Source: a virus (taxonomy: Duplodnaviria; Heunggongvirae; Uroviricota; Caudoviricetes). From it: a DNA stretch of 64,000 bases. Numbering within the stretch: the first letter of the stretch is position 1; each line of letters begins with the position of its first letter. The stretch lies in the IMG/VR virus record IMGVR_UViG_3300005095_000172, positions 1 to 64,000 of that record; one strand, 5' to 3'. A program made the translations under genes and the position numbers. The notes under the pieces were generated by a model that made no database searches, was not told the DNA's origin, and saw only the letters and a program-made list of their open reading frames with translations. Of the stretch, positions 5,056-62,218 are shown in pieces.

Positions 5056-5241
5056 CTATTTTACTAAGTCATACCCAGTAAGTTCTTTAACTCCTGGTTC
5101 TATACCAAGGTCATGGTCAAACGAAATATAGTCAGGGAAATCATTGTTAAGTAAGAACAAGACTGCTTCATCATAGCTTCTTACTACTATAAATGATTCC
5201 TCTTTAGGAGTTCTGATGTCGTCTAAGTAAAGTTTAGTCAT
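5056..5241 (-). CDS. hypothetical protein
   Basis: ORF track. Confidence 0.35.
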   Translation of the reverse strand: MTKLYLDDIRTPKEESFIVVRSYDEAVLFLLNNDFPDYISFDHDLGIEPGVKELTGYDLVK

Positions 5242-5750: not shown

Positions 5751-6866
5751 TTATTCAATTTCGCCCAACAACTTTCTAGCTTGTTCTAGTTTAGAAGTTT
5801 CTTTGATAATTCTTTCCTTAATCATCTTCTCCATTTTTTCTGGAGAACTAGGATAGTCATAAAGACACTTCATAACAATACCAAAGTCTTGAGTTTTTGA
5901 ATGCTCAATAGCGAAAGATTTTCTATCGTTAAAATCAAAGAACTTGTTTCTAAGTTCAACGGCTTTTTGAACTCTATGGTTATAGTATTTTTCAATTTTC
6001 TCGATAATTCCCTCAATTCTTACTCTTTCTTCAGAACCTTGCTCAAGTTCAGCTAAAACATCATCAATTTCTTCATTTAGTATCAAGTCAATCAATGTGT
6101 TTTCCTTACTAAGATCATCTAGAAGACCGTGTCTTTCAATGTACCAATCTGTTTTTACTTTGATGAATTGACCGTCTTTGAATTTTACTACATATCCTTC
6201 AATATTTTCTTCAGAAGCCTTTCTCTCAATAATTTCATCTAAAGTCAAATCAAATGTTTCGGCAGCAGGAATTGACATTTCTTTCGCAAACTTTTTTACA
6301 TCATCTGTAGAATAGTATTCACCAGTTTCTTTATCCCGAACTTGAAGTAATCTAAGTTCAGTTCTTTCATAAGTTAGGACAATCTTATTTCTTGGAGAAA
6401 CCAATTCAAAAAGAAAAACTTTATCTAAATTGGCATCTAAGACATCTTGAATAAAACTTGTGAAAAGAATAGTACTAACCATTTTTGTTTGGTCATTGTC
6501 AAATGACATCTTTGTCTTTGGAACAAATTTTCCATTAGGTAGTCTAACGAATGAAATTAATGAACCATCTTCTTTGAAAGAAACTGAGTCAATTTCTTTA
6601 TCTTTCACGACTCCATATTGTACTGTTTCACCTTGGTTCAGGTTCAGGAACTTTGTCAACATAGGAGTTCTTTCCCAAACATCTTCATTTTTAAGGAAAG
6701 TTAAACCCCTCAATTCCCACGCATCATTTTCAATGAAGTCATTTTCAAACGCTAATCTGTAATTGAACAAAGCGTATTCGTACCCTTGGACAGTACCACT
6801 TTGAACATAAAATGCCTCTGAATTTTCGGTAATTTTAAGTGCTTCTTCATAAGTAGGTAATTTCAT
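5751..6866 (-). CDS. rnlA: RNA ligase 1 (T4 RnlA family)
   Basis: Nucleotidyltransferase motif I 'FKEDGSLIS' is identical in pattern to T4 Rnl1 'TKEDGSLVS'. N-terminal 'ELRGLTFL'/'FLNLNQGE' resemble T4 'ECRGIMFE'/'FFNLNENP'. Confidence 0.8.
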   Translation of the reverse strand: MKLPTYEEALKITENSEAFYVQSGTVQGYEYALFNYRLAFENDFIENDAWELRGLTFLKNEDVWERTPMLTKFLNLNQGETVQYGVVKDKEIDSVSFKEDGSLISFVRLPNGKFVPKTKMSFDNDQTKMVSTILFTSFIQDVLDANLDKVFLFELVSPRNKIVLTYERTELRLLQVRDKETGEYYSTDDVKKFAKEMSIPAAETFDLTLDEIIERKASEENIEGYVVKFKDGQFIKVKTDWYIERHGLLDDLSKENTLIDLILNEEIDDVLAELEQGSEERVRIEGIIEKIEKYYNHRVQKAVELRNKFFDFNDRKSFAIEHSKTQDFGIVMKCLYDYPSSPEKMEKMIKERIIKETSKLEQARKLLGEIE

Positions 6867-7827: not shown

Positions 7828-8991
7828 TTAGTTTTCTTTGAGTAACTCTAATCCTCTTCTAAGGATGTTTAGAGCAGCATTTATATCTCTATCTTCTTCA
7901 AAACCACAATGTTCACAATTATATATGCGTTCTGATAATTTCAGTTCATCTTTAACACAACCACACCTTGAACATGTCTTTGAAGAAGGATAGAATGTTT
8001 CTATTTGTACTACACTAACTTGGTTTTCGTTAGCTTTGTATAGAAGTTTGGTGACTAAATCACCCCAAGCAACATCTTGTATCGCTTTAGAAAGTCTTCT
8101 ATTTTTCATCATGTTCTTAACTTGAAGACTTTCTAAAGCAATGAAATCATAAATATTCACGAGTTTTCTTGTAATTTTATGGTTTCTATCATCTCTTTGA
8201 TTTTTGATTTTACGGTGTATCTTTTGTACTTTCTTCTTAGATTTTATTCTATTCTTAGAACCTTTCTTTCTTCTTGAAAGTTCTTTCTGAGCTTGTTTAA
8301 GCTTCTTAGAACTTTTATGAGTAAGTTTAGAATTCCCTATTTTCTCTCCATTAGAAGTTATCACTATGTCTTTTATCCCTAGATCAATACCAACTGGTTT
8401 ACTTTGTCCTTTGACTTTGAAAGAAGATATTTCAACTTTGAAAGTAATTGAGATAAAATATAAATCTCCTTCTTTAACGATTGTATAACCAGTAACTTTC
8501 TCTGGTAAATCCCAATTAGTCTTGTGTTTTTTGAATTTAATTAAATGGTCTTCTTTCGAATAAGGAGATGACTTTCCTTTTGGAATGACTATCTTGTTAT
8601 CATTGAATTTAACTCTTAACCCAGCATACATATTAATACTCTGAGTCATATTCTTCCTTGATTTGAATTTAGGATACCCACCATTTCTATAGAACCCTTG
8701 GAATCCTTTATAAAGGTTAGCTAATGAAGCTTGTAAGTAGTCATTAGCTGAACGATACAGAAAAGAGTGAGTTTGTTTAAGTTCTGTTAGAGATTTTCCT
8801 AATTGAGTTTGATTAGGGATATTTGGATAATCTTCGTTTTTAGAATAATGGCCAAATTTGAAATCTTTTATTTCTGATAAGATTTGGTTATAAACAAATC
8901 TTTGTTGACCGAATAATTCATATAGTAGAGCTTTTTGTTTAGCTGAAGGAAGGAGTCTATATTTATTAGTTCTGATGATACTTCTTGACAT
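7828..8991 (-). CDS. tnpB: TnpB (IS605/IS607 OrfB; RuvC-like RNA-guided nuclease family)
   Basis: C-terminal 'CSRCGCV...YNCEHCGFEEDRDINAALNI' RuvC-III/zinc-finger signature, typical length, basic K/R-rich central region. Confidence 0.85.
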   Translation of the reverse strand: MSRSIIRTNKYRLLPSAKQKALLYELFGQQRFVYNQILSEIKDFKFGHYSKNEDYPNIPNQTQLGKSLTELKQTHSFLYRSANDYLQASLANLYKGFQGFYRNGGYPKFKSRKNMTQSINMYAGLRVKFNDNKIVIPKGKSSPYSKEDHLIKFKKHKTNWDLPEKVTGYTIVKEGDLYFISITFKVEISSFKVKGQSKPVGIDLGIKDIVITSNGEKIGNSKLTHKSSKKLKQAQKELSRRKKGSKNRIKSKKKVQKIHRKIKNQRDDRNHKITRKLVNIYDFIALESLQVKNMMKNRRLSKAIQDVAWGDLVTKLLYKANENQVSVVQIETFYPSSKTCSRCGCVKDELKLSERIYNCEHCGFEEDRDINAALNILRRGLELLKEN

Positions 8992-9032
8992 AAACCCTCC
9001 TTATTTTAACTTATTATAGTTATTTAATACTC

Positions 9033-9623
9033 TTAAGTAGATTTTAGAAGAGTTTCTGTAGATTTTAATATTTTTCTTCTATTACTATACATTTTCATAC
9101 TAAAATGATGAATGATAGAAATTAAATCTTCAGTTAATTCTTGTTGAAAATCTTCTTCTTTAGAAGAATTCAACACAACTATTTCTACTCCAAACATTTC
9201 AAAGAAAGTTTCAAAATACCCAAACCCAAATCTCGTAAGTCTGTCTTTATATGAAATGTAAATTTTTGAAATTTTACCATCTTGTATATCTTTTAGTAGA
9301 GAATTCAACCCCTTTCTATTTTCATTCATGCCAGAAGCTATGTCGCTATATACATTTTCTGGAACAACTCCAGTACTAACCATGAATTCTCTAATTATCT
9401 TTTCTTGTCTGATTAAATCGTCTTTTTGTTTCGTGTTTGAAACTCTCGTGTATATCACACATTGTCTTTCTTTTTGTTCTTTTTCAGTGAAAACGTCTTC
9501 ATACATGAATTTCCTAGAAGATAATTCGATGTATTTTACTTTACCGTTTCTTCTCCAATTATTCAGAGTCTGAGTGGTTATTTTGTACTTTTCTTTCATT
9601 TCTTTAGCTGATAGATAACCCAT
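9033..9623 (-). CDS. tnpA: IS607-type TnpA serine recombinase (MerR-like HTH + resolvase catalytic domain)
   Basis: 'VIYTRVSNTKQKDDL' catalytic-Ser motif; N-terminal HTH 'ITTQTLNNWRRNGK'; lies immediately upstream of tnpB. Confidence 0.8.
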   Translation of the reverse strand: MGYLSAKEMKEKYKITTQTLNNWRRNGKVKYIELSSRKFMYEDVFTEKEQKERQCVIYTRVSNTKQKDDLIRQEKIIREFMVSTGVVPENVYSDIASGMNENRKGLNSLLKDIQDGKISKIYISYKDRLTRFGFGYFETFFEMFGVEIVVLNSSKEEDFQQELTEDLISIIHHFSMKMYSNRRKILKSTETLLKST

Positions 9624-9800: not shown

Positions 9801-10160
9801 CTAGTAATCCCAGCTCTTTTCCCATTTTAATGGTTTTGTTTTTAACGAGTCTTTGGTCAGTCGTTGATACATTCTTTTATACGCATTTGCTTCTTTTGAA
9901 TTACCTGATTCTAATGCTTCTTTGTAAAGACCAAACGCTTCTGAAATATTGTGTGCGTCACACTCTTTTTCTCTATTTTTGAATGCGTCTTGAATACTAG
10001 AAATAAAAACCTTTTCATAGTGACTAGCACCATAGCCATTAGATTCCCCGTAGATATCGTATTTTCTTCTAAGGAAAGTGAGTAAGTTTTCTTTCGAGGT
10101 AAGATGTCTAACAGACATTAACCTCTCACTCATTGTTTCAAGAAGCTCTGAATCAGTCAT
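9801..10160 (-). CDS. hypothetical protein
   Basis: ORF track. Confidence 0.4.
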   Translation of the reverse strand: MTDSELLETMSERLMSVRHLTSKENLLTFLRRKYDIYGESNGYGASHYEKVFISSIQDAFKNREKECDAHNISEAFGLYKEALESGNSKEANAYKRMYQRLTKDSLKTKPLKWEKSWDY

Positions 10161-10458
10161 CTTTAACCTTTGCTTCAGCTCTCATTTTCCTGACATCTCC
10201 CATAAGTTCCATTTCTTCTTCTCTTTTTGGTGGTTCGGTCACCATATCCATTTTTGAAGTATCTTCGATTCCTACAGAAAACTTCCCTTTTGCATCAGTA
10301 AAATCAGCGTTTTTTTGGATAGAACCCTTGAAGTTACAAAAATGTAGAGTTGCTCCTTTAAAGTTACAACCAGATAGATTTGCGTCTCTGAAGTTCGAAT
10401 ATGAAAGGTCTTTTCCTGAAAAGTCTTTCCCTGATAAATCTTGTCCTCTAAAATTCAT
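10153..10458 (-). CDS. pentapeptide-repeat protein (start moved to MNFRG with RBS AAAGGAG)
   Basis: Tandem A(D/N)LSG-type pentapeptides: 'FRGQDLSGKDFSGKDLSYSNFRDANLSGCNFKGATLHFCNFKGS'. Confidence 0.6.
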   Translation of the reverse strand: MNFRGQDLSGKDFSGKDLSYSNFRDANLSGCNFKGATLHFCNFKGSIQKNADFTDAKGKFSVGIEDTSKMDMVTEPPKREEEMELMGDVRKMRAEAKVKDD

Positions 10459-10483
10459 GATTTCTCCTTTTGAATGGTTTCTT

Positions 10484-11413
10484 TTATTTAACTGGCACTT
10501 GAATGAATGGAGAAGACTTATCCCCAAGCATTACTTTAGGCTTAACTCCATCCCATCTATCAATTTCAGCTTTCTCATTTTCAAGTTGTTTATATGAAAG
10601 TACTTCTGGAGTCAGCGATTCAGCAATCATTTTGTTAGCCTTAGCGATGGCTGTAGCCTCGATTAATCTGGAATCTGCGATCCCTTGTGCATTAACTCTT
10701 TTCGCTTCTGCTTCACCTCTTTCCTTAGCTACCCTTTGCTTGGCTTCTGCTTCAGTTCTTTTAATTTCAAGTTCTTTTCTAGCAACTTCTTCATTCATTT
10801 GTTGCTTAGCCATAATTGACTTTTTCAACTGTGGGGGAATATAGATGTTCTGAATAGACGCTGCTGACACCTTAACACACCCTTCCCCAAAGATGCTATT
10901 GAACTTCTTATTGAGATTTTCCTTAATCTTCACCGAGTACGCATCACGCTTTTCGTTCAGGTCGTACACCGTTGCCGTACCAATTACACCCCTTGAGACC
11001 GAACGAACTTTCGGGATAACGATTTTCTCATCCCATACCCCGTCAACACCATAGTGTTTTCTGATATCAGACGCACAAGTTTTGCTCAGGCTGTAGTTCA
11101 GTACCATATCCAACGGCACTTCCATAGACTCACGGGTCAAGATGGTCAAGTGAGTATCATAGATGATCTCGTGACTGTCCTCTTTCTTAGCCGTTTGGTT
11201 GTTCATAATCAAGGCTTTGACCTTAGTATTATAGACATCGATATCCGTCAGCGGATTCAGCGAGAAATGGAAGCCCTCGTGCAACGCTTCATTCTGTACC
11301 TCACCATTTACAACTTCTACCCCAGCTTCACCTGAGTCAATAGTCGTCATATAACACCCACTCATCATAAAAGGCATTGCTGCCATCAATCCAATTTTAA
11401 TCATTCGTTTCAT
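10484..11413 (-). CDS. SPFH/band-7 (prohibitin/HflK-like) lipoprotein with a C-terminal coiled-coil
   Basis: Lipobox 'MMSGC'. SPFH-like core. 'EIKRTEAEAKQRVAKERGEAEAKR' coiled-coil. Start placed at MKRMIK, which has an AAGGAAG RBS. Confidence 0.55.
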   Translation of the reverse strand: MKRMIKIGLMAAMPFMMSGCYMTTIDSGEAGVEVVNGEVQNEALHEGFHFSLNPLTDIDVYNTKVKALIMNNQTAKKEDSHEIIYDTHLTILTRESMEVPLDMVLNYSLSKTCASDIRKHYGVDGVWDEKIVIPKVRSVSRGVIGTATVYDLNEKRDAYSVKIKENLNKKFNSIFGEGCVKVSAASIQNIYIPPQLKKSIMAKQQMNEEVARKELEIKRTEAEAKQRVAKERGEAEAKRVNAQGIADSRLIEATAIAKANKMIAESLTPEVLSYKQLENEKAEIDRWDGVKPKVMLGDKSSPFIQVPVK

Positions 11414-11430
11414 TTTTCTTCCTTTTATTT

Positions 11431-11901
11431 TTATGAAAACAGCCCGTATCCGAACTGAACATTTAGGTCGCCCCACCATCCATTTATTGCTGGAATTTTA
11501 TTTTTCTCTTCTTTATAACAAAGATCAGGGAGTGATATCTTTACGAATTCCCACCAAAGCCCCTCGAAATCATCAACCCAGCGATCACCGTCTTCATCTG
11601 GTTCCCCTATATATTTATAAAGGGTATCTTCATCAATGTACTTTCTTAGCTCATTAAATGCCTCTTCACTGATATAAGAATCTTCATAATCAGTACAAAT
11701 CCTATACAATTTATCTTCTGGGTATTTTCGTTCCACACCAGTAAAATCATCGTTGTGATTAAAAGACACACCAGTAGTCTTACAAGATTGCTTATAAGCT
11801 TCTTGCACATCTTCAAGCGTATGATTCACATCATAAACAACTTCTCGGGATTTTCCGTGTCCGTCATCAGACCAGTCACCGAGCACTAATTTCATCAACA
11901 T
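11431..11901 (-). CDS. hypothetical protein (GC-richer island)
   Basis: ORF track; 'GDWSDDGHGKS' motif of unclear meaning. Confidence 0.45.
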   Translation of the reverse strand: MLMKLVLGDWSDDGHGKSREVVYDVNHTLEDVQEAYKQSCKTTGVSFNHNDDFTGVERKYPEDKLYRICTDYEDSYISEEAFNELRKYIDEDTLYKYIGEPDEDGDRWVDDFEGLWWEFVKISLPDLCYKEEKNKIPAINGWWGDLNVQFGYGLFS

Positions 11902-15419: not shown

Positions 15420-16157
15420 TCACAGTCTTCGTTTAATTTTAAATTCATCATAGTCAGTAAAAATCAACCTTACTGGATCACCTTCACTAACTTTTATCTC
15501 AGAAACTCCTTGAACAACATGATTGCTTCCGTCCACCCAAAGGGTTATGGGAGTTCTACTTTTGGCTTTTATGAACATATCTCGTGGCGGAATAACATAC
15601 TCTATGTTTCTATTTGTTTTATCTCCAGTGATACTCCAAAGATTAGAAGAAAGAGGGAGGATAACTCCTCCATTATTCTTGTTGATTCCTGTGGAACCTT
15701 GAGGTGTACTGATTATCAATCCACCTCCTTTGAATTTTGAGAAAATTTCATCTTTCTCAGTTACATCAAAATCAATCCAGGAGTTCATGTCTCCGCCTAC
15801 CATCACTTCATTGAACGCTTGGAATATTTCAGAGACTTGAATTTCTTTGGTTTCATTCACTGAAGCCATATCTCTAACTTCTTTAGAATATGTAACTTCT
15901 ACCTTAATAGACTTAAACTCTACTATTGTTGAATCTTCTATTTCAAATTCTTTTCTTGGACTATTCATTAGAAACCCAACAGTACCAGCATTAATTCCAT
16001 AGAATGGTTTTTGAAAATGTCTATAGAGATTAATCGCCCTTAGAAGTGTCCCATCACCGCCTTTAGCCACGACAACATTTTCATATAACCTAATATATTT
16101 ATTTTCGTCGTACCTATCTTTTATTTCTTCTAGTAATTCTCCAAAATTAGAAAACAT
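15420..16157 (-). CDS. nadK: NAD+ kinase (NadK/PpnK family)
   Basis: 'GGDGTLL' and 'GINAGTVGFL' motifs; 'STPQGSTGIN' resembles the NadK 'TPTGSTAYS' motif. Confidence 0.65.
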   Translation of the reverse strand: MFSNFGELLEEIKDRYDENKYIRLYENVVVAKGGDGTLLRAINLYRHFQKPFYGINAGTVGFLMNSPRKEFEIEDSTIVEFKSIKVEVTYSKEVRDMASVNETKEIQVSEIFQAFNEVMVGGDMNSWIDFDVTEKDEIFSKFKGGGLIISTPQGSTGINKNNGGVILPLSSNLWSITGDKTNRNIEYVIPPRDMFIKAKSRTPITLWVDGSNHVVQGVSEIKVSEGDPVRLIFTDYDEFKIKRRL

Positions 16158-17897: not shown

Positions 17898-18118
17898 TTT
17901 TGTGGTTTTAAAGTTTTAGGATTGATATAGACTGATAATCTTCTTTTCCCGTAAAGGTAAACCACATTTTCAATGCAAATCTTTCTATACCAAAAACCTT
18001 GATGTGGTCGTTCAATACTTCTTGTTTTAGAAAAATCCTCATTACTTTCTGTGAGTTCGCACCCACTAAAACTCAAAGAAATAATGATCCCTATCATAGC
18101 CATTGAAATCTTTTTCAT
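17879..18118 (-). CDS. small lipoprotein
   Basis: Signal/lipobox 'ISLSFSGC'. Confidence 0.4.
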   Translation of the reverse strand: MKKISMAMIGIIISLSFSGCELTESNEDFSKTRSIERPHQGFWYRKICIENVVYLYGKRRLSVYINPKTLKPQNCEERK

Positions 18119-18855
18119 TTTTTATTCCTTTGGTGTTTTCCGCAAGAACACCAACCTTTTTCAATTAGTGCCCAAAAATTTCTACCGTCCATCAAGTGTT
18201 TAAATTCACAAAAGTCACTTCTGATATCTCTGGCATTAGCATCAATGTGTATATCACTTCTATCAACAAATTCAACTTCTTTCATCTTAAATCCATTATA
18301 ATCAAATATTATAGTATAGAACTCATTAAAGTATTCTCGTTCATTACAGTAGAAATAGTCATATCTATCTTCTTCTTTATTGTAATAGTAAAGAGTAACC
18401 TCATCCAAAGTATTAGCTATTTTAAGTACTGAGTCTTCTATTTCTTTGAACCAAATGTCCCAATCTTCATTATCGTGAGAATGTACGAAGAAACACTCAC
18501 TTGGATAAACTTGCCTTATAAGTTCAATTCTTTCGTTAAAGCTTAGAGGGTTCTTTTCTGGACATTCACCATTGTCATCTCCAAGTACAACAATAGGTAC
18601 TTTCCCATCAAGAAGAATCTCATTAATGATGTGTTGGTGACCAAAGTGGAATGGTTGAAACCTTCCTATAACCATTCCGTATTCTACATTTCTCGGTTTT
18701 ACCTCTGATGTTACGGCAAATTCAAGGTAATTCATTTCATACTTCGGATACATATTTTGAAGAGAAGAATACAACACGCTTTCATCTACATTCCCGTGAA
18801 GTTCTTTCAGTACCCTGAAATCATTCCTAATTTTGTTTATTGTATAAGTAGTCAT
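18115..18855 (-). CDS. nicotinamide-mononucleotide adenylyltransferase (NadM/NatV-type NMNAT) with a C-terminal extension
   Basis: 'GMVIGRFQPFHFGHQHII' (H/T)xGH nucleotidyltransferase motif characteristic of NMNATs; adjacent to nadV. Confidence 0.65.
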   Translation of the reverse strand: MTTYTINKIRNDFRVLKELHGNVDESVLYSSLQNMYPKYEMNYLEFAVTSEVKPRNVEYGMVIGRFQPFHFGHQHIINEILLDGKVPIVVLGDDNGECPEKNPLSFNERIELIRQVYPSECFFVHSHDNEDWDIWFKEIEDSVLKIANTLDEVTLYYYNKEEDRYDYFYCNEREYFNEFYTIIFDYNGFKMKEVEFVDRSDIHIDANARDIRSDFCEFKHLMDGRNFWALIEKGWCSCGKHQRNKK

Positions 18856-18879: not shown

Positions 18880-20319
18880 TTATCTTGACATCTCTCTTAC
18901 TGCTGTAAGTGTAGTAAGTTTCACTTCCCCATTTTCATAGATTGTTTCTAGGCAATCTTGAATTACTCTATCATCGACTTTCAAGTATCTATCATCAGTG
19001 AAATATTCATCAGTTTCTTTGTTGTACCAAAGTGTCAGTTCACCTTTTTTAGACTTTTTGTTCGGGGCGGTAATAGGGTCTTTGAACACATCTCTTTGTA
19101 CAAGGTATGGCTCCCAGACACTATTTCCTTCACCGTCTTCGATAGGACTTCCTTCATCTACGATAATACTTGAACATTTAAGAGCCCAACCTTGGGTGTC
19201 TCTATTATGAGATTGCATCAACCAACCACCAGAACCAAAGGCGATATTAGAAGAAGCGTAACCTCTTTCTTTAAGAACTTCAAGCATTTCTTTGATAGTT
19301 TCTTCATTAATACCATCACCCCAGATAATTCCGTACTTAGTAAACTCTTTATAACCTTTAGAATTAATTGTGAATTTAACTTCATTCTTTTCCATAATAT
19401 CAAGAGTTTTATTAATCACTTCTACTGGATTTCCTGAGTCTGGTCGAATAACAAACTTAGGGTACTCTTCACTTTCAATCTTTTCTTTGAACTCACCTGA
19501 TGTTACAGCATCAACCGTTTTAAAGTAATTGTAAGAATCACAAACTGCTGCTACAATAACTGAAGTTTTGTTGACTTCAATGTGGTTCATAATTATCTTG
19601 AGTTCATTTTCTTTAAGCCAAGATGTAGTCGTACTGTGCTCCGTAGCAGGGATTGAGTACCCAGCGTCTTCTTCATCATAGAATTCAAATGCGTATCTAA
19701 GAGAATTGAAGTTATCAGTTCCCATAAACTGTGTTAGATGAGCTACACCACCAATCCCTGCTGATTCCACTGAACTCGAACCTCTGTCTCCGAAGTTGTG
19801 GAACTGGAACTGTACGTCAAATACATCATCTGATGAAGTTTCCTTCCAGTACTTTTCAAGAAGTTCTCTGATATAGTAGCTTCTTGTGGCAATATTTGAT
19901 GTGTACCAAACCTTAAGGAAAAGAGTTTCAAGGAAACCTGCTACCCAAGGAACTTTCTCATCTGTTGATTCAATGCTGAATAGAATATTTCCAGTAGGAA
20001 TTACAGAACCTTCTTTAACAGCTCTGATTTTTACTGGAATATACCCGTTGTATTCATTTACAATATACTCCCAACCTTCTTTATTGAAAGGGATACCGTG
20101 CCCAGAAGCAAATTTTTCTGCTTGGTTTACATCATCCATTGTTACTGGATTCATAAGGTACTTCAAGATAAAGTACTGAATTCCAAAGAAAACCGTTTTT
20201 GGATATACTTTACCGCTTCTTGCTTCTGCGTACACAAACATTTGCTTCATATTTTCTGGGTATTGTTTCCAGTGACTGTATTTGTAAGAGTCACTCAACA
20301 TAATTACATTTTCTTTCAT
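18880..20319 (-). CDS. nadV: nicotinamide phosphoribosyltransferase (NadV/NAMPT)
   Basis: 479 aa; N-terminal 'SDSYKYSHWKQYP' and overall NAMPT-like sequence. Confidence 0.8.
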   Translation of the reverse strand: MKENVIMLSDSYKYSHWKQYPENMKQMFVYAEARSGKVYPKTVFFGIQYFILKYLMNPVTMDDVNQAEKFASGHGIPFNKEGWEYIVNEYNGYIPVKIRAVKEGSVIPTGNILFSIESTDEKVPWVAGFLETLFLKVWYTSNIATRSYYIRELLEKYWKETSSDDVFDVQFQFHNFGDRGSSSVESAGIGGVAHLTQFMGTDNFNSLRYAFEFYDEEDAGYSIPATEHSTTTSWLKENELKIIMNHIEVNKTSVIVAAVCDSYNYFKTVDAVTSGEFKEKIESEEYPKFVIRPDSGNPVEVINKTLDIMEKNEVKFTINSKGYKEFTKYGIIWGDGINEETIKEMLEVLKERGYASSNIAFGSGGWLMQSHNRDTQGWALKCSSIIVDEGSPIEDGEGNSVWEPYLVQRDVFKDPITAPNKKSKKGELTLWYNKETDEYFTDDRYLKVDDRVIQDCLETIYENGEVKLTTLTAVREMSR

Positions 20320-27542: not shown

Positions 27543-28410
27543 TCAACTTTCAAGATATTTACCCTCCACTATATTTTCAACTTCTTTAAAATCAGCTTTA
27601 TTAACAGTCACAACAGCGATTCTTGTTCTGGGTACCAATTCATTATATCTAAAAGTTTCTCCGTTCTTTTGGAACCGCCCTTCAGATTGAACAAGTACTT
27701 CTTCTCTCTTCACAAACCTACCGAATTTTTCTCCTGGAGTTGTTTCAGAGAACCAATCCTTACCAGTTTTATTTTTGCAATGTTCAATCTGTTCTTGAGA
27801 TGTTTTATTTTGCAGTTCTTTATGAGAACAATAAGTCTGGGCAAAAACATTTTTTGAATTCTTTTCGGGATCTCTTACTCTCCACAAAAATGAATTTACA
27901 ACTTCACTCTCATCCTCAACTCCATAAACTCTAGCATCAAAATAAGCTAAGTTGAGTTTGTGTCTAAACTTCTCCGTGAGTCCTTGAGCTTCAAGAACTT
28001 CTTTTAGTCCTTCATTGAACTTCACGGAACAGTACGCAGCAAAAAGTGAAGCAATCTTTTGAACCCTACCATTATAAATATGTTGGTAGTCCTTACGAAG
28101 TTCCTTCTCAAACCCAGTTTCCTCTTTCAACTCAACTTTCCTTAGCTGAGTAAGAGAAGGGATATAAAGTGTGATCTCGTCACTCTGAGTGTAACCAGTG
28201 TAAGCGTTGAATTCCTCCACTAACTTCACCGTACAATAATTCATAGCAGCAATAAGCACTCTATCAAAAGGCTTTCAAATCCCTTAGTGAATTTTGAAAT
28301 CCATGACCGTCTAACCTAACGATGATATGGTTATCTACAGGAACTCTTTTTTCGTATTGTGCTTCATATCCCTTTAATCTATCACCAAGAGCTGGGCTTG
28401 TATCTTTCAT
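27543..28410 (-). CDS. Thg1-like protein (tRNA-His guanylyltransferase / 3'-5' nucleotidyltransferase family), interrupted by a +1 frame change at UUU_UGA
   Basis: N-terminal 48-aa ORF (28264-28410) 'VPVDNHIIVRLDGHGF' matches Thg1 'VVRIDGKKFH'. The downstream ORF (27543-28259, GTG start) 'QSDEITLYI', 'AYFDARV', 'FLWRVRD' matches Thg1 'ESDEYSFIL', 'PSFDGRV', 'YLRWRQ'. Confidence 0.55.
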
Positions 28411-31678: not shown

Positions 31679-32200
31679 TTATCTTCCATTTTTTAAATCG
31701 GTTACTATTTCATCCAGATACTTAAACATACTAGAACCACTACTGAATTTCATAATAGAAAGTGTTGCTTTAGCAGTCACATTGGGGATTTTTTGTAATC
31801 TTTCATCAAAAGAATCTATGTAACTTCCCCTTTTTAGAATAGCGAACTCATCACCACCAATCCTGAATAGATTAGAATCCTCAAAAAGAGATTTGATACT
31901 AAGAGAAACATCAATAATCATTTCATCACCAGCATCATAGCCTTTTGTTCTGTTGATATCATGTAGTCCATTAATATCAATAATCGCTAAGATGAAGTGG
32001 TGATTGAAAGTTTCGTACTCATACCAAAATTCAGATAACCTTTCTTGAAAGTCTGCTCTACCCATGAAATTTGTTAAGTAGTCGTACTTATATTTTCTTA
32101 TAGTAGAATCCTTCTCATGAATTTCTTTTTCAAGTCTTTCTATTCTTATTTTGAGTTTTTGAATTTCTATATCATTTGGATTGTTTAATTCTTTATTCAT
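31679..32200 (-). CDS. GGDEF-domain diguanylate cyclase (stand-alone, with an N-terminal coiled-coil)
   Basis: 'DYLTNFMGR' (DxLTGLxNR), 'IIDINGLHDINRTKGYDAGDE', 'RIGGDEFAIL' intact GGDEF active site. Confidence 0.7.
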   Translation of the reverse strand: MNKELNNPNDIEIQKLKIRIERLEKEIHEKDSTIRKYKYDYLTNFMGRADFQERLSEFWYEYETFNHHFILAIIDINGLHDINRTKGYDAGDEMIIDVSLSIKSLFEDSNLFRIGGDEFAILKRGSYIDSFDERLQKIPNVTAKATLSIMKFSSGSSMFKYLDEIVTDLKNGR

Positions 32201-32438
32201 TTTCTAATTCCTTGGTATATAAGGTTTCTACACATCCATTGGGCTGTCAAGTTTATACCTAACAATACTAATTGTCCCCGAATCAAGAGAAGTGTTATGA
32301 GTTTTATTGAACATTTCCTTTGCCTTCTCTAATGAGCTAAAAACACCTAAAATATCTTGGAAAGAATCTTATTCATCCATAATGGCTAAGAAAACAAATT
32401 TCATTGGAGGTAGTTTCACAAGTATATTCTATCATGAC

Positions 32439-32705
32439 TCACCTTTCATAAAGTAGAATTAAGATATTATTCACTATTTCAATCACTGTCACGAATATGA
32501 AAATCGTTGCTAAAGATACTGTTGCCATTACCGCAAGGACACTAACTCCATTTATAAAAGCGTAGACTACTGAAGTTGCTTCTATAATTTGTATGTTCGC
32601 TGAGCTAAACCCATAACCAAAAAGGATGAACATACCAATGATAGCGAAGATCAAAAATAAAATCCCCAAATCTTCCAATAAGCATCTCTTATAATTCTTT
32701 TTCAT
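32439..32705 (-). CDS. membrane protein
   Basis: Hydrophobic. Confidence 0.4.
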   Translation of the reverse strand: MKKNYKRCLLEDLGILFLIFAIIGMFILFGYGFSSANIQIIEATSVVYAFINGVSVLAVMATVSLATIFIFVTVIEIVNNILILLYER

Positions 32706-47314: not shown

Positions 47315-47773
47315 TTAAATTCTTCTACTAAAAGAATTAATCGTTCGTTCAATTTTTCTTCTTGTATCCCCATCAATTGACTCCTTCATATTGTAATATT
47401 TTTCTTCAATTTTCCAGATATTCTCATAGAACCAATCGTCATCTATGAAAACATATTCATATCCGTGCGTCTCACACCATTGTTTAGCGAATTTCTCCTT
47501 TACCTTTACTACTTCGTCGCTCATTTCAGATTTAGGTTTAATTTCATAGAGTATTTTTCCAATTTCATCTTCAAAATCTATTATATATGTATGTGAAACC
47601 CCATTATATGAGTACGGGATTCTTGTTTTTTCATACATAAGTGATGGGTTTATCATGAAAAATAAAGCTTCCCAGGAACTCCTGAGAGCAACACCATTCA
47701 CATAACATCGTGATTTAGAATATGAATTCGTGATACAAGGAGTCCACTCACCGTTAGCTATTTTTGTTTTCAT
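47315..47773 (-). CDS. putative PD-(D/E)xK nuclease (candidate homing endonuclease) between the split-intein halves
   Basis: 'HTYIIDFEDEIGKILYEIKP' D...E-x-K signature; sits inside the fractured uvsW locus. Confidence 0.4.
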   Translation of the reverse strand: MKTKIANGEWTPCITNSYSKSRCYVNGVALRSSWEALFFMINPSLMYEKTRIPYSYNGVSHTYIIDFEDEIGKILYEIKPKSEMSDEVVKVKEKFAKQWCETHGYEYVFIDDDWFYENIWKIEEKYYNMKESIDGDTRRKIERTINSFSRRI

Positions 47774-47930
47774 GTATATAGATTGTCTCTCTGCTTTTTC
47801 TTGAGGTCTTCTTTATTCATGGTATGATTTGGATTATTTTCAGTTATGTATTTAGAGTGAAGAGCGTTCTCACATTTTTTATTACAAGTTTTCCTATACG
47901 CACCATATCCATATAAACTGGAGTCTCTCT

Positions 47931-48401
47931 TTAATCTTTTTTGACAAAATGCACAGTTTTCGAGTGGGAAAAATAATCTAATATTTCAGTATTAGTCATT
48001 TCATAAAATTCAGTATGTTCTAGACCAAATTTCAAAAACATTTTCATGTATTTATTTTTTCCTCTAAGCTCCGTACTTTCGTGAAGTTTTGAGTTAGAAT
48101 ACTGTAAAGCAATAATTTCATCTTCTATATTACTTCTTTCAATGGGATATATAACTCTTCCATTTTCATCCCAAATAGCATAATTTAAATCTATATCTGT
48201 AATGTCAAATAAAACTGCAAACTTGAAGAAATAGAAGTTGATATGGTTTTCGTTAATTTTTCCTAAATCTTTTCTAAGGTAAGTTATCTTACCTTTGATC
48301 TTTGATCTTACTGCTTTTGTGTATGGGGTTTTAGTGAGGAAGAGTTTAAGTTCAGTTAGAGAACTAATTCTTTCTATTTCTTTAAATATATTTCTTTTCA
48401 T
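47931..48401 (-). CDS. hypothetical protein between the split-intein halves (possible partner of the nuclease)
   Basis: ATG with GGAG RBS; no recognisable motif. Confidence 0.4.
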   Translation of the reverse strand: MKRNIFKEIERISSLTELKLFLTKTPYTKAVRSKIKGKITYLRKDLGKINENHINFYFFKFAVLFDITDIDLNYAIWDENGRVIYPIERSNIEDEIIALQYSNSKLHESTELRGKNKYMKMFLKFGLEHTEFYEMTNTEILDYFSHSKTVHFVKKD

Positions 48402-48446
48402 CTCATTCTCCGAGTAAAATTTAAGCCATGGCTTGCCTCTATTTAA

Positions 48447-49430
48447 TCAACTTACACTTAAAATGTCATCCCCAACTAATAATTCATCAACTCTTACCCA
48501 ACCCCTTTTTGTGTTTACTTTATGGTTTCCAGTGATAATAAGTTCTTTCCCGTCCTCAGTCTTTAGCTTATACGTCTGTTCTTTTGGAAGATTCTTGTGT
48601 ACTTTTCTTACCTTTTTGTATTCATATTCACCAGAGTTTTCATTTATCGTCAATACTTCTTCACCAACTGAAATCTCACTTATTTTTTTCACCCCATCTT
48701 TTGTCAGTATTGGTGTGTTTGGATGTAAACATTCATCAACTATTACATAATCTAATTGGTCATAGTCGGACTCTTTCATAAGTATTCCCGACTGCCATGT
48801 AGTGACAACCATAGGCTTACTAAATGATTTTTCTTTCCCAGCAAATATCGTGTGAAGCTTTTTATCTGCATCTTCTTCACTCATCCCATAACTAAGGAAA
48901 TCTGAACGCATCTGTTCGGCTAATCCGACATTCGGAACTATCAGTAAACCTTTCTTTCCGTGTCTTTCGAAGAATGACATGATAAGAAAAACAATCAAAC
49001 TTTTTCCTGCCCCAGTAGCCGCTACGATTATTCTTCGTGGATGCTTGAGTACTTCCCTTAATGCGTCAACTTGATAATCATATGGTTCAAATGGGAGATT
49101 TAGTGATTTAATATGTTCTTGGATATCTGCTTCTGAGAAAAATTCTGGTTCAGTCTTAGGAGTGTAAGGTTCGTCTAAGTGGTCTTTATATCTAAGTGAA
49201 ATTGTTTCAGCTAACCCTTTTGGTATTTGCATAGATAAGTCAGATAACACCTTGAAATAGTATTTCTTACCGTCCCATATACCAGATCTGTATTTTGGTG
49301 AAAACTTATACCCATCCACAAAAACACTCAAGTCATCCATTAATTTAGTTCTTAGAACTAAAGCTTCTTCTTCTGAATGAGAATCGAAAGTTATAATAGA
49401 AAAACTTTCATCTTTATCAAAAATCTTCAT
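48447..49430 (-). CDS. uvsW: UvsW helicase N-terminal fragment followed by a 94-aa split-intein N-half (IntN)
   Basis: N-terminus 'DGYKFSPKYRSGIWDGK' matches T4 UvsW 'DGYRFNPRFRYGNWDGR'. Walker A 'ATGAGKS'. 'VIVDE|CLHPNTPILTKDG...ITGNHKVNT...' are intein blocks A/B. The ORF ends at a stop after IntN (48450-48731). Confidence 0.8.
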   Translation of the reverse strand: MKIFDKDESFSIITFDSHSEEEALVLRTKLMDDLSVFVDGYKFSPKYRSGIWDGKKYYFKVLSDLSMQIPKGLAETISLRYKDHLDEPYTPKTEPEFFSEADIQEHIKSLNLPFEPYDYQVDALREVLKHPRRIIVAATGAGKSLIVFLIMSFFERHGKKGLLIVPNVGLAEQMRSDFLSYGMSEEDADKKLHTIFAGKEKSFSKPMVVTTWQSGILMKESDYDQLDYVIVDECLHPNTPILTKDGVKKISEISVGEEVLTINENSGEYEYKKVRKVHKNLPKEQTYKLKTEDGKELIITGNHKVNTKRGWVRVDELLVGDDILSVS

Positions 49431-52805: not shown

Positions 52806-53861
52806 TCATAACCCAGCTTCTTTATCTAGCCTTTCCATGAACCATTTTCTTGCGATAGTTGAAATGTGTTTATTCACATCTTTTGGTTCAAGACCTCTTT
52901 CTACAAGGACGTCCATTTCTTCTTTCATAACATCGGAAACAACCGCCTTAAGGAACTCTCCTGTTCTCTTAACATCACCCTTTCCACCATTGAGAACATC
53001 GAATGTCTCATTGTACATTTGTTCTAGTCTCCAAGATGGAGTAGCGTAATTAGCAAAGTCAATTTTCTTTTGTTCAAGCTCACTATCCACTTTACTTAGT
53101 TTTTTCACTTTTGAATTAGAATGCTTATCCCCCTTACTCTTAAAGGAAAATCTATTTCCGTCGAACCAACCGACGAACACAATCCCTTCTCCGATACCTG
53201 AAACGCCAAATTTCTTAGCGACAGGACATTCATTTTCTACATATTCGGTGAGTTTCACAATTTCTTCTTGTGCTTTAGAAGGATTTTCAAAATCAATATC
53301 TACTTCGAATGTTTCAAAGTCAAAGATAGAAAAAATTCTAAGTTCAGGATTTTTTACTCTATTGAAAATTACTCTTGGATCCACAGCCCATCTATAATCT
53401 TCCTCATCTTTCATTTTGAATTTAATACCGAACATATAGAATGATTTGTCTAGTTCAGAAATACCGACCCCATTTTGAATTCCATTTCCAGCCCATTCTC
53501 CATAAATACATAATTCTTCAATTTCATCGCCTTTATACATATCATCAAAAACTTCATTCAGCATTGACTCAATGTAATCCCTAATACTTTCTACATAAAA
53601 GGCAAATCCTGCGTTGTCTTTGTCTACGGTGATTACATTTTTCTTAGACTGACACCACATTTCACGCTCTGAATTCATACAAATACTAGCGTTTGTTCCG
53701 TGGAGCTTCACTGTACCTACAAAAGTCACCGTAGGAAGGTCTTTAGAATGGTCATAAACAGCATTTCCGTCTTCATCCACACCTTTGTATCTCGCAACAT
53801 GAGATAGGTCTTTTACCACGTTTCTGAATTGAGCAATGCTCGGCATTTTGATTAGTTTCAT
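52806..53861 (-). CDS. RNA ligase, Rnl2-like (nucleotidyltransferase with KxHGxN motif I)
   Basis: 'VTFVGTVKLHGTNASI' versus T4 Rnl2 'WVAREKIHGTNFSL'. Confidence 0.6.
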   Translation of the reverse strand: MKLIKMPSIAQFRNVVKDLSHVARYKGVDEDGNAVYDHSKDLPTVTFVGTVKLHGTNASICMNSEREMWCQSKKNVITVDKDNAGFAFYVESIRDYIESMLNEVFDDMYKGDEIEELCIYGEWAGNGIQNGVGISELDKSFYMFGIKFKMKDEEDYRWAVDPRVIFNRVKNPELRIFSIFDFETFEVDIDFENPSKAQEEIVKLTEYVENECPVAKKFGVSGIGEGIVFVGWFDGNRFSFKSKGDKHSNSKVKKLSKVDSELEQKKIDFANYATPSWRLEQMYNETFDVLNGGKGDVKRTGEFLKAVVSDVMKEEMDVLVERGLEPKDVNKHISTIARKWFMERLDKEAGL

Positions 53862-56056: not shown

Positions 56057-56237
56057 CTAATTTTATAATTTTTCCTGTTCCAGAGCATCTACTACATATA
56101 TCAGACTCTGGCTCCCCGAATGCTCCGTGCCCGTGTATCACACCAGAACCATTGCAATATTCACAAACATTTACAACAATTATTCCACGTTTTATAAGTT
56201 TAGAAAGTTTCACTTTCTTTTGATTATCTTTACTCAT
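56031..56237 (-). CDS. zinc-ribbon protein
   Basis: 'CEYCNGSG...CSRCSGTG'. Confidence 0.35.
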   Translation of the reverse strand: MSKDNQKKVKLSKLIKRGIIVVNVCEYCNGSGVIHGHGAFGEPESDICSRCSGTGKIIKLGENCEANR

Positions 56238-57042
56238 AATACCAGCCTTCTTCCTTTAGAAGTTCTTTCGCTTCTTCTGTGCTTAGTTCGATTGCTTCTC
56301 CTTTAACATAAGGAGTGTCGATTTTAATGGTGGTTTCACCAGCAAAGCCGTCTTTCTTGAAATATAAAGGTTCAACTTCAAAAGACCTAAGACCAATCAT
56401 AGTTCTTTTATTTGGGACTGATTCAGGCACACCATGAAGACATTTAGTGTTGTCGAAAATTAATACATCACCGACACCTAAATTCAATTCCTTTTCTTCA
56501 CCATTACTGTCAATTATCTTAAGACCACCACCGTCGTTTTCATTTTCTAAGACGATTACCATTACTAATCTAGGAATTAACCCTTCTTCCAACTTAATAT
56601 ATTCTTTATCCCATTCACCTTTGAATATTTCTGCGTCGAAGTGGTAAGGCAGAGAATTGTCATACCCAGATTTATATTTCTGGTAATTCACCAGTACTTT
56701 TGTATCTAGTGGAATTTTATTGTATTCACCATAAAGAAAATTACTAAGAACACCAAAATATAAATACATGAGTTCTTCTACTCCTTGGATTTCAGAAGAC
56801 ATAAGAAACGGGGCAGTGTCAGGGGTTTCTAATGAGACCAATACAGCGTCTCCTCTTCTACCTTTTGTATCTTCTCTTTTTCTAAATAATTTTCTTTCTA
56901 CAAAATCTTCAGAGTATTCATTTTCAATAGAAGGAATTGTCTCTTCTAATAGAATCTTTATTCCAGGTTCTCCAACTCCATTTCTTTCTATATGGAACCC
57001 GCTTTCTTTCAAATTGTTTATTATTTCATTAACATAGCCCAT
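56230..57042 (-). CDS. possible 2OG-Fe(II) oxygenase-fold protein
   Basis: 'LPYHFDAE' (HxD) ... 'KCLHGVP' ... 'GLRSF'; weak. Confidence 0.3.
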   Translation of the reverse strand: MGYVNEIINNLKESGFHIERNGVGEPGIKILLEETIPSIENEYSEDFVERKLFRKREDTKGRRGDAVLVSLETPDTAPFLMSSEIQGVEELMYLYFGVLSNFLYGEYNKIPLDTKVLVNYQKYKSGYDNSLPYHFDAEIFKGEWDKEYIKLEEGLIPRLVMVIVLENENDGGGLKIIDSNGEEKELNLGVGDVLIFDNTKCLHGVPESVPNKRTMIGLRSFEVEPLYFKKDGFAGETTIKIDTPYVKGEAIELSTEEAKELLKEEGWYYE

Positions 57043-57096
57043 TAAATCTTCTCCACTTGGTAGTTCTTAATTACTGAAGGAAATTTCAAGTAGAAA

Positions 57097-57312
57097 CTAC
57101 TCTTTATTTTCCAATAATATAGCTTTCATTTCATCAGGAAGAAGTTCTTCTGGACCTTCTTCAGTGAACTTTAGAAAGATTTCATTTTCTAAAAACTTAG
57201 TTTTCCCATACAAGTTGTTTTCTAGGACTGTAGTATTAATGGGAAACTCTGGTTCCCCACATTCCATACTCACATACACTTCCCCATCAATAGTAATTTC
57301 ATAAATTTCCAT
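57097..57312 (-). CDS. hypothetical protein
   Basis: ORF track. Confidence 0.35.
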   Translation of the reverse strand: MEIYEITIDGEVYVSMECGEPEFPINTTVLENNLYGKTKFLENEIFLKFTEEGPEELLPDEMKAILLENKE

Positions 57313-59384: not shown

Positions 59385-59448
59385 TCAATTTTCTCCTGTT
59401 TTCATTTATAAAGTTATTTTATTGTATAAAAGTTTTCTTAATTGGAAC

Positions 59449-60549
59449 TTATTTCCAACCCATTTCTTTTGCAAGTTTATATCTTCTTGAAGTGAATGAT
59501 TTAAACTTCAAAATCTCACTTTCATCCACACCATGTTTTCTTAGTTCTGATTTCATTTCTTCATAGACAACTTTCGGTGATCTGAAGAAGTTTTCCTTTG
59601 TTAAGAATTCTCCAACTTTACTTTTGATAAATTTTCTTCTTCTCGTTTCTTCTATGCTGAACTTTTTTCTCTTTTTAGGAAGTACTGAAGTAAAATTCAA
59701 CTTTTCTTGTAGTTCTTCAAATGAATACTTAGGAATTAAGTTTATCATTTTAAAGAATTTCAAGTAATTTGTCTCAGACCTGATTGCCCAAGGTCTCACA
59801 GATTGTTTATAGTCATTGATTGAGTGAGATTGATTAGAATATTCTGAATGAATTATGTTGTGCGCAACTGGGTTAATCATAATCATCCCAAAGAATTCAG
59901 TAAGCTCTTCAACGCATTCTTGTGAAGATAAATCAATATTCCTCAGTAAATCACTAGGGTTCTTTTCTCCCTTAATCACGCTATGTCCATATTGGCTCAC
60001 TTCCATATGATGGAGGTCAAATGTGAATGAATTTTTTGTTGGGGATTTTGTTAAGAACGGGTCAATGTTAGTGAAGAATGGAATACCGCTAATTGGACAT
60101 CGTTGTTCCATGATATTCTTCTTACCAAAATACATACAGGAAAGGACTTCCATATTTTTCAGTCTTCTTTCGTCCCTTGAATTTAATGAAATTTCAGTAC
60201 CGTCATTCAAGACAACTTTATATTTGTCTTTAGAAATTCTCACATACTCTTTGAAGTCTTTTAAAGTGTATTTCGTCTTGAAATACTTATTGTATTTTAA
60301 AATAATTCTCTGAGCATCTTTTCCGACAGCGTTGATATTTGTGGTTCTATTTTCTTTAGAGAAGAGTTTTTGCAAGTCAGTTTCTTTATTCAAAAACTTC
60401 AAAACTGACTTTCTGTTATAAGTATGTAGTGGGTCGTATTTTCCTAATACAATATCCACACTTTCAGTAAGAGTATGTCCTTGGATAAGTTTTTCTTCAA
60501 TTTCTTTTACGATTTTTTCGTCAATAAATTCTGGAATAGAAATCTTCAT
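59449..60549 (-). CDS. putative free-standing HNH-type endonuclease
   Basis: 'FDLHHME...N...NPVAHNIIH' HNH-like His/Asn spacing; large N-terminal region of unknown function. Confidence 0.35.
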   Translation of the reverse strand: MKISIPEFIDEKIVKEIEEKLIQGHTLTESVDIVLGKYDPLHTYNRKSVLKFLNKETDLQKLFSKENRTTNINAVGKDAQRIILKYNKYFKTKYTLKDFKEYVRISKDKYKVVLNDGTEISLNSRDERRLKNMEVLSCMYFGKKNIMEQRCPISGIPFFTNIDPFLTKSPTKNSFTFDLHHMEVSQYGHSVIKGEKNPSDLLRNIDLSSQECVEELTEFFGMIMINPVAHNIIHSEYSNQSHSINDYKQSVRPWAIRSETNYLKFFKMINLIPKYSFEELQEKLNFTSVLPKKRKKFSIEETRRRKFIKSKVGEFLTKENFFRSPKVVYEEMKSELRKHGVDESEILKFKSFTSRRYKLAKEMGWK

Positions 60550-62206: not shown

Positions 62207-62218
62207 TAGAATCTCCTT

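Follow-up and report, generated by a model that had tools for sequence, protein, structure and literature searches.

Several diguanylate cyclases, among them DgcB (C. crescentus, 6TTR), SiaD (P. aeruginosa, 7E6G), PadC (Idiomarina, 5LLW), DgcR (Leptospira, 6ZXB) and WspR (3BRE), share an architecture in which a coiled-coil stalk leads directly into the GGDEF domain at its DxLT turn. These stalk cyclases are bacterial enzymes controlled by a sensor or a partner (REC, phytochrome or SiaC), and most of them carry an RxxD product-inhibition site (I-site). An engineered fusion, GCN4-WspR (3I5C), reduces the plan to a short parallel zipper and a bare GGDEF domain of about 200 amino acids in all, and keeps the I-site of WspR. 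Here we describe a viral gene that resembles this artificial design. It occupies positions 31679..32200, on the minus strand, of a 64,000-nucleotide stretch of tailed-phage DNA (IMG/VR record IMGVR_UViG_3300005095_000172, positions 1 to 64,000; hereafter the window) and encodes a GGDEF protein of 173 residues, which in our judgement is probably a minimal, sensor-less diguanylate cyclase, unregulated and constitutively dimeric, that raises the cyclic dimeric GMP (c-di-GMP) of the host.

Cyclase genes of viral origin have been noted in marine viromes (PMC7785012), and a relaxed tblastn search placed short GGDEF genes throughout Pseudomonas Yuavirus and Bordetella Vojvodinavirus, many of them annotated as 'diguanylate-cyclase GGDEF domain protein' (for example QAX99436.1 of Yuavirus PaSz-4, 156 amino acids, and APL99421.1 of Vojvodinavirus CN1, 152 amino acids). 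Fold matches of the window protein in BFVD likewise include a 'diguanylate cyclase' of Bacillus phage SP-15 (183 amino acids), gp350 of phage G and the 152-residue protein of Bordetella phage CN1. The Vojvodinavirus LK3 encodes an integrase and a repressor along with a gene annotated as a GGDEF diguanylate cyclase; a study of this phage, without biochemistry, points to the gene and reports lysogens that overproduce biofilm (PMC8471281). Like the window protein, the Yuavirus and Vojvodinavirus proteins combine a short helix with a compact GGDEF domain whose C-terminal half is shortened, and conserve the D, N, GD, R-x-xGDEF and D...K positions; their genes lie among early or host-interaction genes and adjoin an anti-restriction gene. 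They differ in overall sequence (~28% identity to the window protein), in reading SGDEF or AGDEF, in keeping the canonical Lys and in having a shorter N-terminal helix. Their carriers are siphoviruses of roughly 60 kb; the window gene falls in a clade of its own, carried by large T4-like phages. Short stand-alone GGDEF genes are therefore already on record in cultured phages, and the unusualness implied by the initial annotation of this locus, which was made from the sequence alone, was overstated: the window gene is a further member of an uncharacterised kind. Of added interest are a carrier that is T4-like and probably virulent, a clade that is large and coherent, and the clean design of a zipper joined to a trimmed domain.

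Two further groups of cyclases bear comparison. The Hypr enzymes (Geobacter GacA and Bdellovibrio Bd0367, which make the 3',3' form of cyclic GMP-AMP (cGAMP)) have the same GGDEF fold and homodimeric half-site mechanism, but carry Ser or Thr at the Watson-Crick-reading position, where the phage protein has Asp92. The mCpol enzyme OptS of the Panoptes system is also a minimal stand-alone palm-domain cyclase that lacks a sensor and belongs to phage-host conflict (PMC12657218). OptS is, however, host-encoded and largely devoid of the GGDEF motif, makes 2',3'-cyclic di-AMP (c-di-AMP) or 3',2'-cGAMP, and has the membrane effector OptE as its partner, whereas the window protein has a full GGDEF signature, belongs to PF00990, has no match in PADLOC and has no conserved partner.

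A trimmed GGDEF domain behind a predicted coiled-coil stalk

The gene is a complete ATG-to-TAA open reading frame (ORF) on the minus strand, which the initial annotation had left unstated, with its TAA at 31679..31681. The product scores 58.1 bits against the Pfam GGDEF model PF00990 (E = 1.2e-15, gathering cut-off 23.8) and 45.9 bits against the NCBIfam GGDEF model TIGR00254 (cut-off 37.4); matches to the closest homologues have E values as low as 1.9e-35. On these scores membership of the GGDEF family is far beyond chance. Matches in PHROGs were confined to GGDEF-containing families of unknown function (profiles of 274-693 positions), and the PADLOC defence-system models gave zero matches for the protein. 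The product of the window gene is a genuine member of the GGDEF family, and the original observation holds with minor corrections.

An AlphaFold2 (AF2) model built on a 16-sequence family alignment (mean predicted local distance difference test score 92.4, predicted template modelling score 0.77) places a helix at residues 8-38, alpha1 at 48-65, beta1 at 69-76 and two helices at 79-105. The C-terminal half is predicted to hold the GGDEF-bearing beta2-beta3 hairpin (110-124), alpha3 (128-135), a strand (141-147) and a final helix (155-172), so that the order of elements in the model is alpha1-beta1-alpha2-beta2-beta3-alpha3-beta-alpha4. Foldseek returned 97 matches in the Protein Data Bank at E <= 0.001; the best 50 listed were all GGDEF-domain proteins, with query TM-scores (TMq) up to 0.82. 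The best matches are active cyclases that bear their GGDEF domain on a coiled-coil stalk, namely DgcB (6TTR, 0.80), SiaD (7E6G, 0.82), PadC (5LLW, 0.79), DgcR (6ZXB, 0.76) and the engineered GCN4-zipper-WspR fusion (3I5C, 0.71), the last of which the family profile also recovers at E = 1.9e-16. The window protein thus shares with the stalk cyclases both the catalytic residues and the fold (TMq 0.76-0.82), and the profile match covers stalk and domain together.

It departs from them in having no input domain and no I-site, a His for the Lys of the F-K motif, and ~19 fewer residues after alpha-3. The catalytic domain (residues 39-173; 31682..32086, minus strand) spans ~135 amino acids, compared with ~160 in canonical domains, and the initial description of it as compact and stand-alone can be extended, as the domain is moreover trimmed. 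When the family profile is aligned to DgcR, the match runs from the stalk through the C-terminal Lys, and the sole large difference is a 19-residue gap after alpha-3, where canonical domains probably form a beta-hairpin. This absence explains why the PF00990 alignment (residues 38-158, profile positions 2-131 of 161) ends at position 131. The GCN4-WspR fusion, which is artificial, contains the full-length WspR domain.

The N-terminal coiled coil that had been proposed from the sequence found support in both the model and the family. Residues 8-38 (32087..32179, minus strand) form a continuous 31-residue amphipathic helix in the AF2 model, predicted to be a parallel coiled-coil stalk of about four heptads with I13, L16, I20, L23, I27, K30, I34 and Y37 at its core positions. 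Across 48 family members, hydrophobicity peaks at positions -3, -6, -10, -13, -17, -20, -24 and -27 from the Asp of the DxLT motif, and its Fourier power is highest at a period of 3.5 residues. This periodicity is that of a/d heptads, whose register relative to the catalytic domain stays the same from one family member to the next. With a median of only 28 residues, the N-terminal extension leaves no room for a sensor domain, as the initial annotation had held. Heptad periodicity and the analogy to stalk cyclases together predict a homodimer in which two half sites would be juxtaposed.

Active site, substrate specificity and product inhibition

Active-site equivalences were taken from alignment to the solved cyclases TpbB, MorA, DgcR and TM1788, and residue roles were assigned after established structural work on PleD and on the Hypr enzymes (PMC6456294). 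The motif residues of the window protein are D40-Y-L-T43, R48, D75, N83, G91-D92, R113-I-G115-G116-D117-E118-F119, D163 and K170. By alignment, D40-x-L-T43 and R48 would form the wide turn. The initial annotation had described the DxLT...NR motif as intact, which is correct for D40-Y-L-T43 and R48 but not for the Asn, as 'NR' reads G47-R48. Residues 75-92 (D75-INGLH80-DIN83-RTKGYDAG91-D92; 31925..31978, minus strand) align to DSDRFKEINDRLGHAAGD of TpbB and appear to hold the metal-binding D75 together with N83 and D92, a pair spaced as N-x8-D that would read guanine. D75 lies at the end of beta-1 and, in the alignments, opposite the first Asp of the DSDRFK stretch of TpbB and of the DIDKFK stretch of DgcR; we take it to be the equivalent of PleD D327, in the numbering of the established literature. 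The GGDEF signature, residues 115-119 with R113 ahead of it (31844..31858, minus strand; the plus strand reads gaactcatcaccacc), is intact from R113 to F119, as originally stated. The C-terminal helix (residues 155-172; 31685..31738, minus strand), which the AF2 model also predicts, carries D163 and K170 and aligns to 'kiaDknLyeaKss' of DgcR, so that it is the likely counterpart of the A-D-x-x-L-Y-x-A-K phosphate-binding helix. The substrate-binding motifs, likewise described as intact, were kept at N83, D92 and K170, while the Lys of D-x-D-x-F-K is replaced by His80.

The initial annotation had also raised the possibility that the enzyme makes a different cyclic dinucleotide. In Hypr GGDEF enzymes a Ser at the specificity position is needed for the use of adenosine triphosphate (ATP), and mutants with Asp in its place (S348D) act purely as diguanylate cyclases (PMC6456294). 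The window protein has Asp92 at this Watson-Crick-reading position, not Ser or Thr. Asp92 and the GGDEF signature form the canonical combination specific for guanosine triphosphate (GTP), which predicts that GTP alone would be used; the Asp argues against cGAMP or c-di-AMP as the product, and the alternative dinucleotide is disfavoured.

The RxxD site, which in product-inhibited cyclases lies five residues before GG[D/E]EF, is absent from the window protein, whose sequence at this point is F-E-D-S-N-L-F-R-I-GGDEF. It is also absent from 44 of 49 short relatives and was found in none of 75 short cluster representatives, both of which are described below.

A conserved family of short GGDEF proteins

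A word-indexed search recovered 15 short homologues of 155-209 amino acids, with 37-54% BLASTP identity (31-45% when the full alignment is counted). In IMG/VR, scanned by pattern, 103 relatives were confirmed, and ORFs re-extracted from the best 80 of these loci yielded 49 distinct proteins of 146-222 amino acids and 24-48% identity. D75, N83, R113, G116, D117, E118 and F119 are present in all 49, T43 and K170 in 48 each, G115 in 46, D92 in 45 (with Asn in the other four) and D163 in 38; position 80 is His in 34 and Lys in 13. An exhaustive hidden Markov model (HMM) search of 1.84 billion cluster representatives (clusters at 50% identity) returned 112 proteins below 1e-30. Among 146 newly listed matches, 75 are no longer than 225 amino acids (median 170), while the long proteins listed mostly contain several matched stretches. 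The 75 short representatives show R-x-[G/S/Q]GDEF in 68 cases, D...L[H/K]..N in 74 and G-D in 67.

Alignment thus shows no degeneration of the active site, the key residues being kept in 45-49 of the 49 relatives. That the residues for catalysis and substrate binding persist at an overall identity of 24-48% is the pattern expected of an active enzyme under selection, and not of a degenerate receptor-type domain. The window protein shares its length, architecture and phage context with this mini GGDEF group, in which a short zipper precedes a compact GGDEF domain within 146-222 amino acids.

The four relatives with Asn for Asp (G-N for G-D) are the loci L017, L018, L024 and L047; their GGDEF ORFs lie near position 6000, apart from that of L017 at 970..1425. 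The same replacement occurs in 5 of the 75 cluster representatives. These variants may form a sub-group with altered nucleotide specificity, to judge by this one position.

Every readable context of the relatives is phage-like, and the IMG/VR contigs that carry short members are up to 235 kb long. A motif-limited scan of 185,579 bacterial and archaeal species (one genome each) gave only two weak loci, one in a Lachnospiraceae metagenome-assembled genome and one in Aliarcobacter, for which reason the clade looks phage-restricted, provisionally, given the motif-limited scan. Clustering of the flanks of 51 loci placed a DNA ligase upstream in 10 and ribonucleotide reductase (RNR) subunits downstream in 6-7; no obligatory partner gene emerged from these flanks, and nothing in them was common with the window's own neighbours. 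Individual surroundings illustrate the setting. In L001, a 73-kb contig, the relative is accompanied by DNA ligase, endonuclease VII, ClpP and RNR genes. A DNA ligase lies directly upstream in L002 and L003, and L002 also has adenylosuccinate synthetase, an HD_4 hydrolase and a Band 7 protein. L004 has NAMPT within 1 kb of the GGDEF gene, together with an RNA ligase, gp32 and a 5'-3' exonuclease. L005 combines DNA ligase, ClpP and RNR with Acb1 and a protein with the Acb2/Tad1 hairpin (8729..9533), ~6 kb downstream of the mini GGDEF gene; the two, of which Acb1 belongs to the anti-CBASS nuclease family (CBASS, cyclic-oligonucleotide-based anti-phage signalling system), come after ClpP and RNR. 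The HD_4 (RelA/SpoT-type HD) hydrolases of about 175 amino acids occur in L002 (2177..2698) and L004 (736..1266). By their family assignment, these two phages may break down alarmones of the (p)ppGpp type as well, which would put a second nucleotide messenger under their control.

Genomic setting of the window gene

An identical protein (P0001) is encoded on a 140,623-bp Joint Genome Institute metagenome contig. In the window, a putative ribosome-binding site, AAGGA (32209..32213, minus strand), lies 8 nt ahead of the ATG, as read from the sequence alone. No sigma-70-type promoter was flagged directly upstream of the gene, promoter-like sites in the region do not exceed the shuffled expectation, and the 238-nt upstream spacer folds no better than its shuffles (z = +0.8). 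The GC content of the gene (30%) is close to that of the window (33%), so there is no sign of a recent foreign insertion.

The adjoining genes are small ORFs that lack a family assignment; a transglycosylase gene of the SLT type is found 1.1 kb upstream, and 1.7 kb downstream lies that of a calcineurin-like phosphoesterase. Directly upstream, across the 238-nt spacer, an ORF that has no family match encodes an 88-residue protein with three predicted membrane segments (32439..32705, minus strand). We considered a Panoptes-like pairing with this membrane neighbour and rejected it, as other loci do not preserve it. Around the relatives, neighbours with membrane segments occur at background frequency (6/42 and 4/42 loci, against 12%).

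All plausible genes of the window lie on the minus strand, at a GC content of about 32-33%. They include a T4-type set comprising the gp32 single-strand-binding protein, a Dda-like helicase, an exonuclease, UvsW with an intein and UvsY, and further two RNA ligases, a polynucleotide kinase (PNK)-like protein and a protein with a tail-sheath C-terminal domain. The carrier is a large T4-like phage, probably of the virulent type, and is uncultured. No near-identical or close DNA relative was found among 50,697 phage records, and the best matches of the window gp32 are Campylobacter phages, at 39% identity. The sole recombinase seen is a small serine resolvase (9033..9623) beside a TnpB-like transposase gene (7828..8991); together (7828..9623, minus strand) they show the layout of an IS607-family insertion sequence and not of a lysogeny module. 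The phage had been called lytic in the initial annotation; the T4-like gene set and the lack of any lysogeny module in the window make this a reasonable deduction, with 64 of about 140 kb covered.

The remaining recognisable genes, all on the minus strand, fall into several functional groups. NAMPT (18880..20319), an NMNAT-like protein of the cytidylyltransferase fold (18115..18855) and NAD kinase (15420..16157) form an NAD+ salvage set that could plausibly counter NAD-depleting defences. A cluster of thymidine-hypermodification genes (56230..63843) comprises a weakly matching 2OG-Fe(II) oxygenase (56230..57042), a thymidylate-synthase-like protein of 690 amino acids with an HNH endonuclease domain inserted mid-protein (57312..59384), an amidoligase (60603..61538), the 5-hmdU DNA kinase HMUD2 (61529..62206), an amino-acid:DNA transferase/aGPT-pyrophosphorylase (62219..63211) and a glutamine amidotransferase (63208..63843); a hypermodified thymine is probably present in the DNA of the phage. 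The UvsW-like helicase ORF (48447..49430) consists of the N-terminal half of a helicase, an intein splicing domain and a stop, and is followed by a 156-residue ORF and a TnsA-like endonuclease ORF (47315..47773; whole region 47315..49430), so that the helicase gene looks intein-interrupted or split. A Thg1-like protein (27543..28259; tRNA-His guanylyltransferase family, a 3'-5' polymerase) belongs to the same palm superfamily as GGDEF; with the RNA ligases (5751..6866 and 52806..53861), the PNK-like protein (503..1720) and a 61-residue cREC_REC ORF (5056..5241) it suggests an extensive tRNA and RNA repair kit. The window further encodes an SPFH/Band 7 protein (10484..11479) and, at 10153..10527, a pentapeptide-repeat protein; the relative L002 has a Band 7 gene as well, near its GGDEF gene.

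Genes for the c-di-GMP-related domains PilZ, EAL and HD-GYP were sought among the minus-strand window ORFs of at least 45 amino acids (the smallest scanned as concatenates) and none was found. The window likewise contains no c-di-GMP riboswitch or other Rfam family, and 11 related loci (140 kb in total) contain only two tRNAs and no c-di-GMP riboswitch. Given these negatives, any read-out of c-di-GMP presumably belongs to the host itself.

Discussion

The reading of the window protein as a diguanylate cyclase fits every computational test applied here: the fold, the architecture, the conservation of catalytic and guanine-specificity residues, the lack of an I-site and the phage-restricted distribution are all observed. 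From these we infer dimerisation, activity, the product and, above all, a benefit to the phage. In the mechanism that we propose, two copies would be held together by a coiled coil of about four heptads running in fixed register into the DxLT turn, and the fixed helix register would bring the two half active sites face to face. Each half site would bind GTP-Mg2+, with Asp75 and Asp117/Glu118 coordinating the metal, Asn83 and Asp92 reading the guanine and Lys170 holding the phosphates, and two GTP would be condensed to 3',3'-c-di-GMP for as long as the protein is present. Because there is neither an input domain nor an RxxD site, output would be set only by the amount of phage protein and by host phosphodiesterases. 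Expressed from a T4-like phage, such an enzyme would raise host c-di-GMP within minutes. The signal takes effect rapidly on motility and surface structures, and the effects to be expected are those known of high c-di-GMP: flagella would be braked or motility repressed, and pili, adhesins and exopolysaccharide would change. The phage might gain by keeping the infected cell among susceptible neighbours, or by a change of receptors that leads to superinfection exclusion. There is precedent for phages that touch on this pathway: phage N4, for one, needs a c-di-GMP-dependent glycan as its receptor (PMC8669472).

Several observations weigh against this reading. TpbB, MorA, DgcR and TM1788 all have Lys where the window protein has His80, Gly47 takes the place of the Asn of 'NR', and the family does not conserve the Arg found after the C-terminal Lys of canonical enzymes (in the window protein the Arg after K170 is presumably one residue nearer to the Lys than in PleD). 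The ~19-residue stretch of canonical domains is also missing, and any of these departures, the trimmed domain included, could lower or change activity. The predicted dimer derives solely from periodicity and analogy, and an effect on the host would presume c-di-GMP receptors there; the window itself has neither the PilZ, EAL or HD-GYP domains nor the riboswitch that might have pointed to c-di-GMP signalling. Finally, the literature searched (most subscription journals lay outside it) contained no biochemical assay of any phage GGDEF enzyme.

The departures from the canonical active site could also be taken to mean that the protein is a nucleotidyl cyclase or polymerase with another product, such as cGAMP, c-di-AMP, linear pppGpG or another oligonucleotide. 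His80, Gly47, the trimmed C-terminal half and the non-conserved Arg after Lys170 would fit such a change, as would the Asn at the Watson-Crick-reading position in 4 of the 49 relatives. The window protein itself, however, keeps Asn83 and Asp92, its GGDEF signature with Asp is the canonical combination, and Asp is what drives GTP specificity, as the conversion of S348D mutants to pure diguanylate cyclases illustrates (PMC6456294); we regard another product as very unlikely. Another reading is a non-catalytic modulator that makes no product itself but binds GTP or c-di-GMP, or uses its stalk or GGDEF face to pair with host cyclases, which it would thereby poison or activate. Small phage-encoded binders of host cyclases are known, as PB1-like phages encode YIP peptides that bind the cyclase YfiN (PMC8085984). 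The NCBIfam matches of the window protein, moreover, include LapD, CsrD and GdpS. These proteins are receptors or have roles other than that of a cyclase, LapD being a c-di-GMP receptor and CsrD a specificity factor for RNase E. Yet the catalytic residues that degenerate receptor-type domains lose are near-invariant in the 49 relatives and present in most of the 75 representatives, and there is no RxxD site with which c-di-GMP could be bound, which makes a purely binding role highly improbable. A function in nucleotide pools, in which the enzyme would serve mainly as a GTP sink or in the nucleotide metabolism of the phage and make c-di-GMP only incidentally, is barely credible: relatives do often lie between DNA ligase (10/51 loci) and ribonucleotide reductase (6-7/51), but conservation of the neighbours is low and the arrangement is absent from the window itself. 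The turnover of cyclases is also far too slow to affect GTP pools, and it is hard to see why a phage in replication would waste GTP.

A different question is whether the nucleotide would serve against immunity, with c-di-GMP or a close analogue flooding the cell and interfering with cyclic-nucleotide defences. It might compete at the effector or sensor sites of CBASS or other systems, or it might replace the 'decoy' nucleotides that Panoptes-type guards monitor while phage sponges and nucleases remove the host signals. The accessory regions are rich in counter-defence functions, including the NAD salvage genes of the window, the NAMPT gene adjoining the relative in L004 and, in L005, the Acb1 gene and the Acb2/Tad1-hairpin protein ~6 kb downstream; minimal palm-domain cyclases, moreover, have an established place in the nucleotide arms race (Panoptes, PMC12657218). 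Against this stand the zero PADLOC matches, the lack of a conserved partner gene, the membrane neighbours that are not enriched, and the Acb linkage in one locus only. The predicted 3',3'-c-di-GMP is, in addition, not the Panoptes signal (2',3'-c-di-AMP or 3',2'-cGAMP), and c-di-GMP activates, rather than blocks, bacterial CBASS effectors of the STING type. On balance, a counter-defence enzyme is unlikely. That the phage jams or satisfies immune sensors with c-di-GMP (or, in the Asn variants, with another dinucleotide), as counter-defence in place of a lifestyle switch, for instance by keeping a decoy guard quiet while sponges or nucleases such as Acb1 and Acb2 strip away the real alarm signals, we consider quite unlikely.

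If counter-defence were nevertheless true, it would add a third layer to the cyclic-nucleotide arms race and give the first phage-made cyclic dinucleotide with a role in immune evasion. More generally, a lytic phage might want high c-di-GMP so as to anchor the infected cell, to exclude superinfection or to interfere with immunity. The family is a sizeable one, in which viral contigs contribute about 50 distinct members and metagenome clusters 75 short representatives. If active, the window protein would have the simplest natural design of a diguanylate cyclase, a zipper and a trimmed domain with no sensor and no feedback, and might find use in synthetic biology as a compact, unregulated generator of c-di-GMP. 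Its activity would also mean that large phages of the virulent type, and not only temperate ones, rewire the main lifestyle signal of their hosts during infection.

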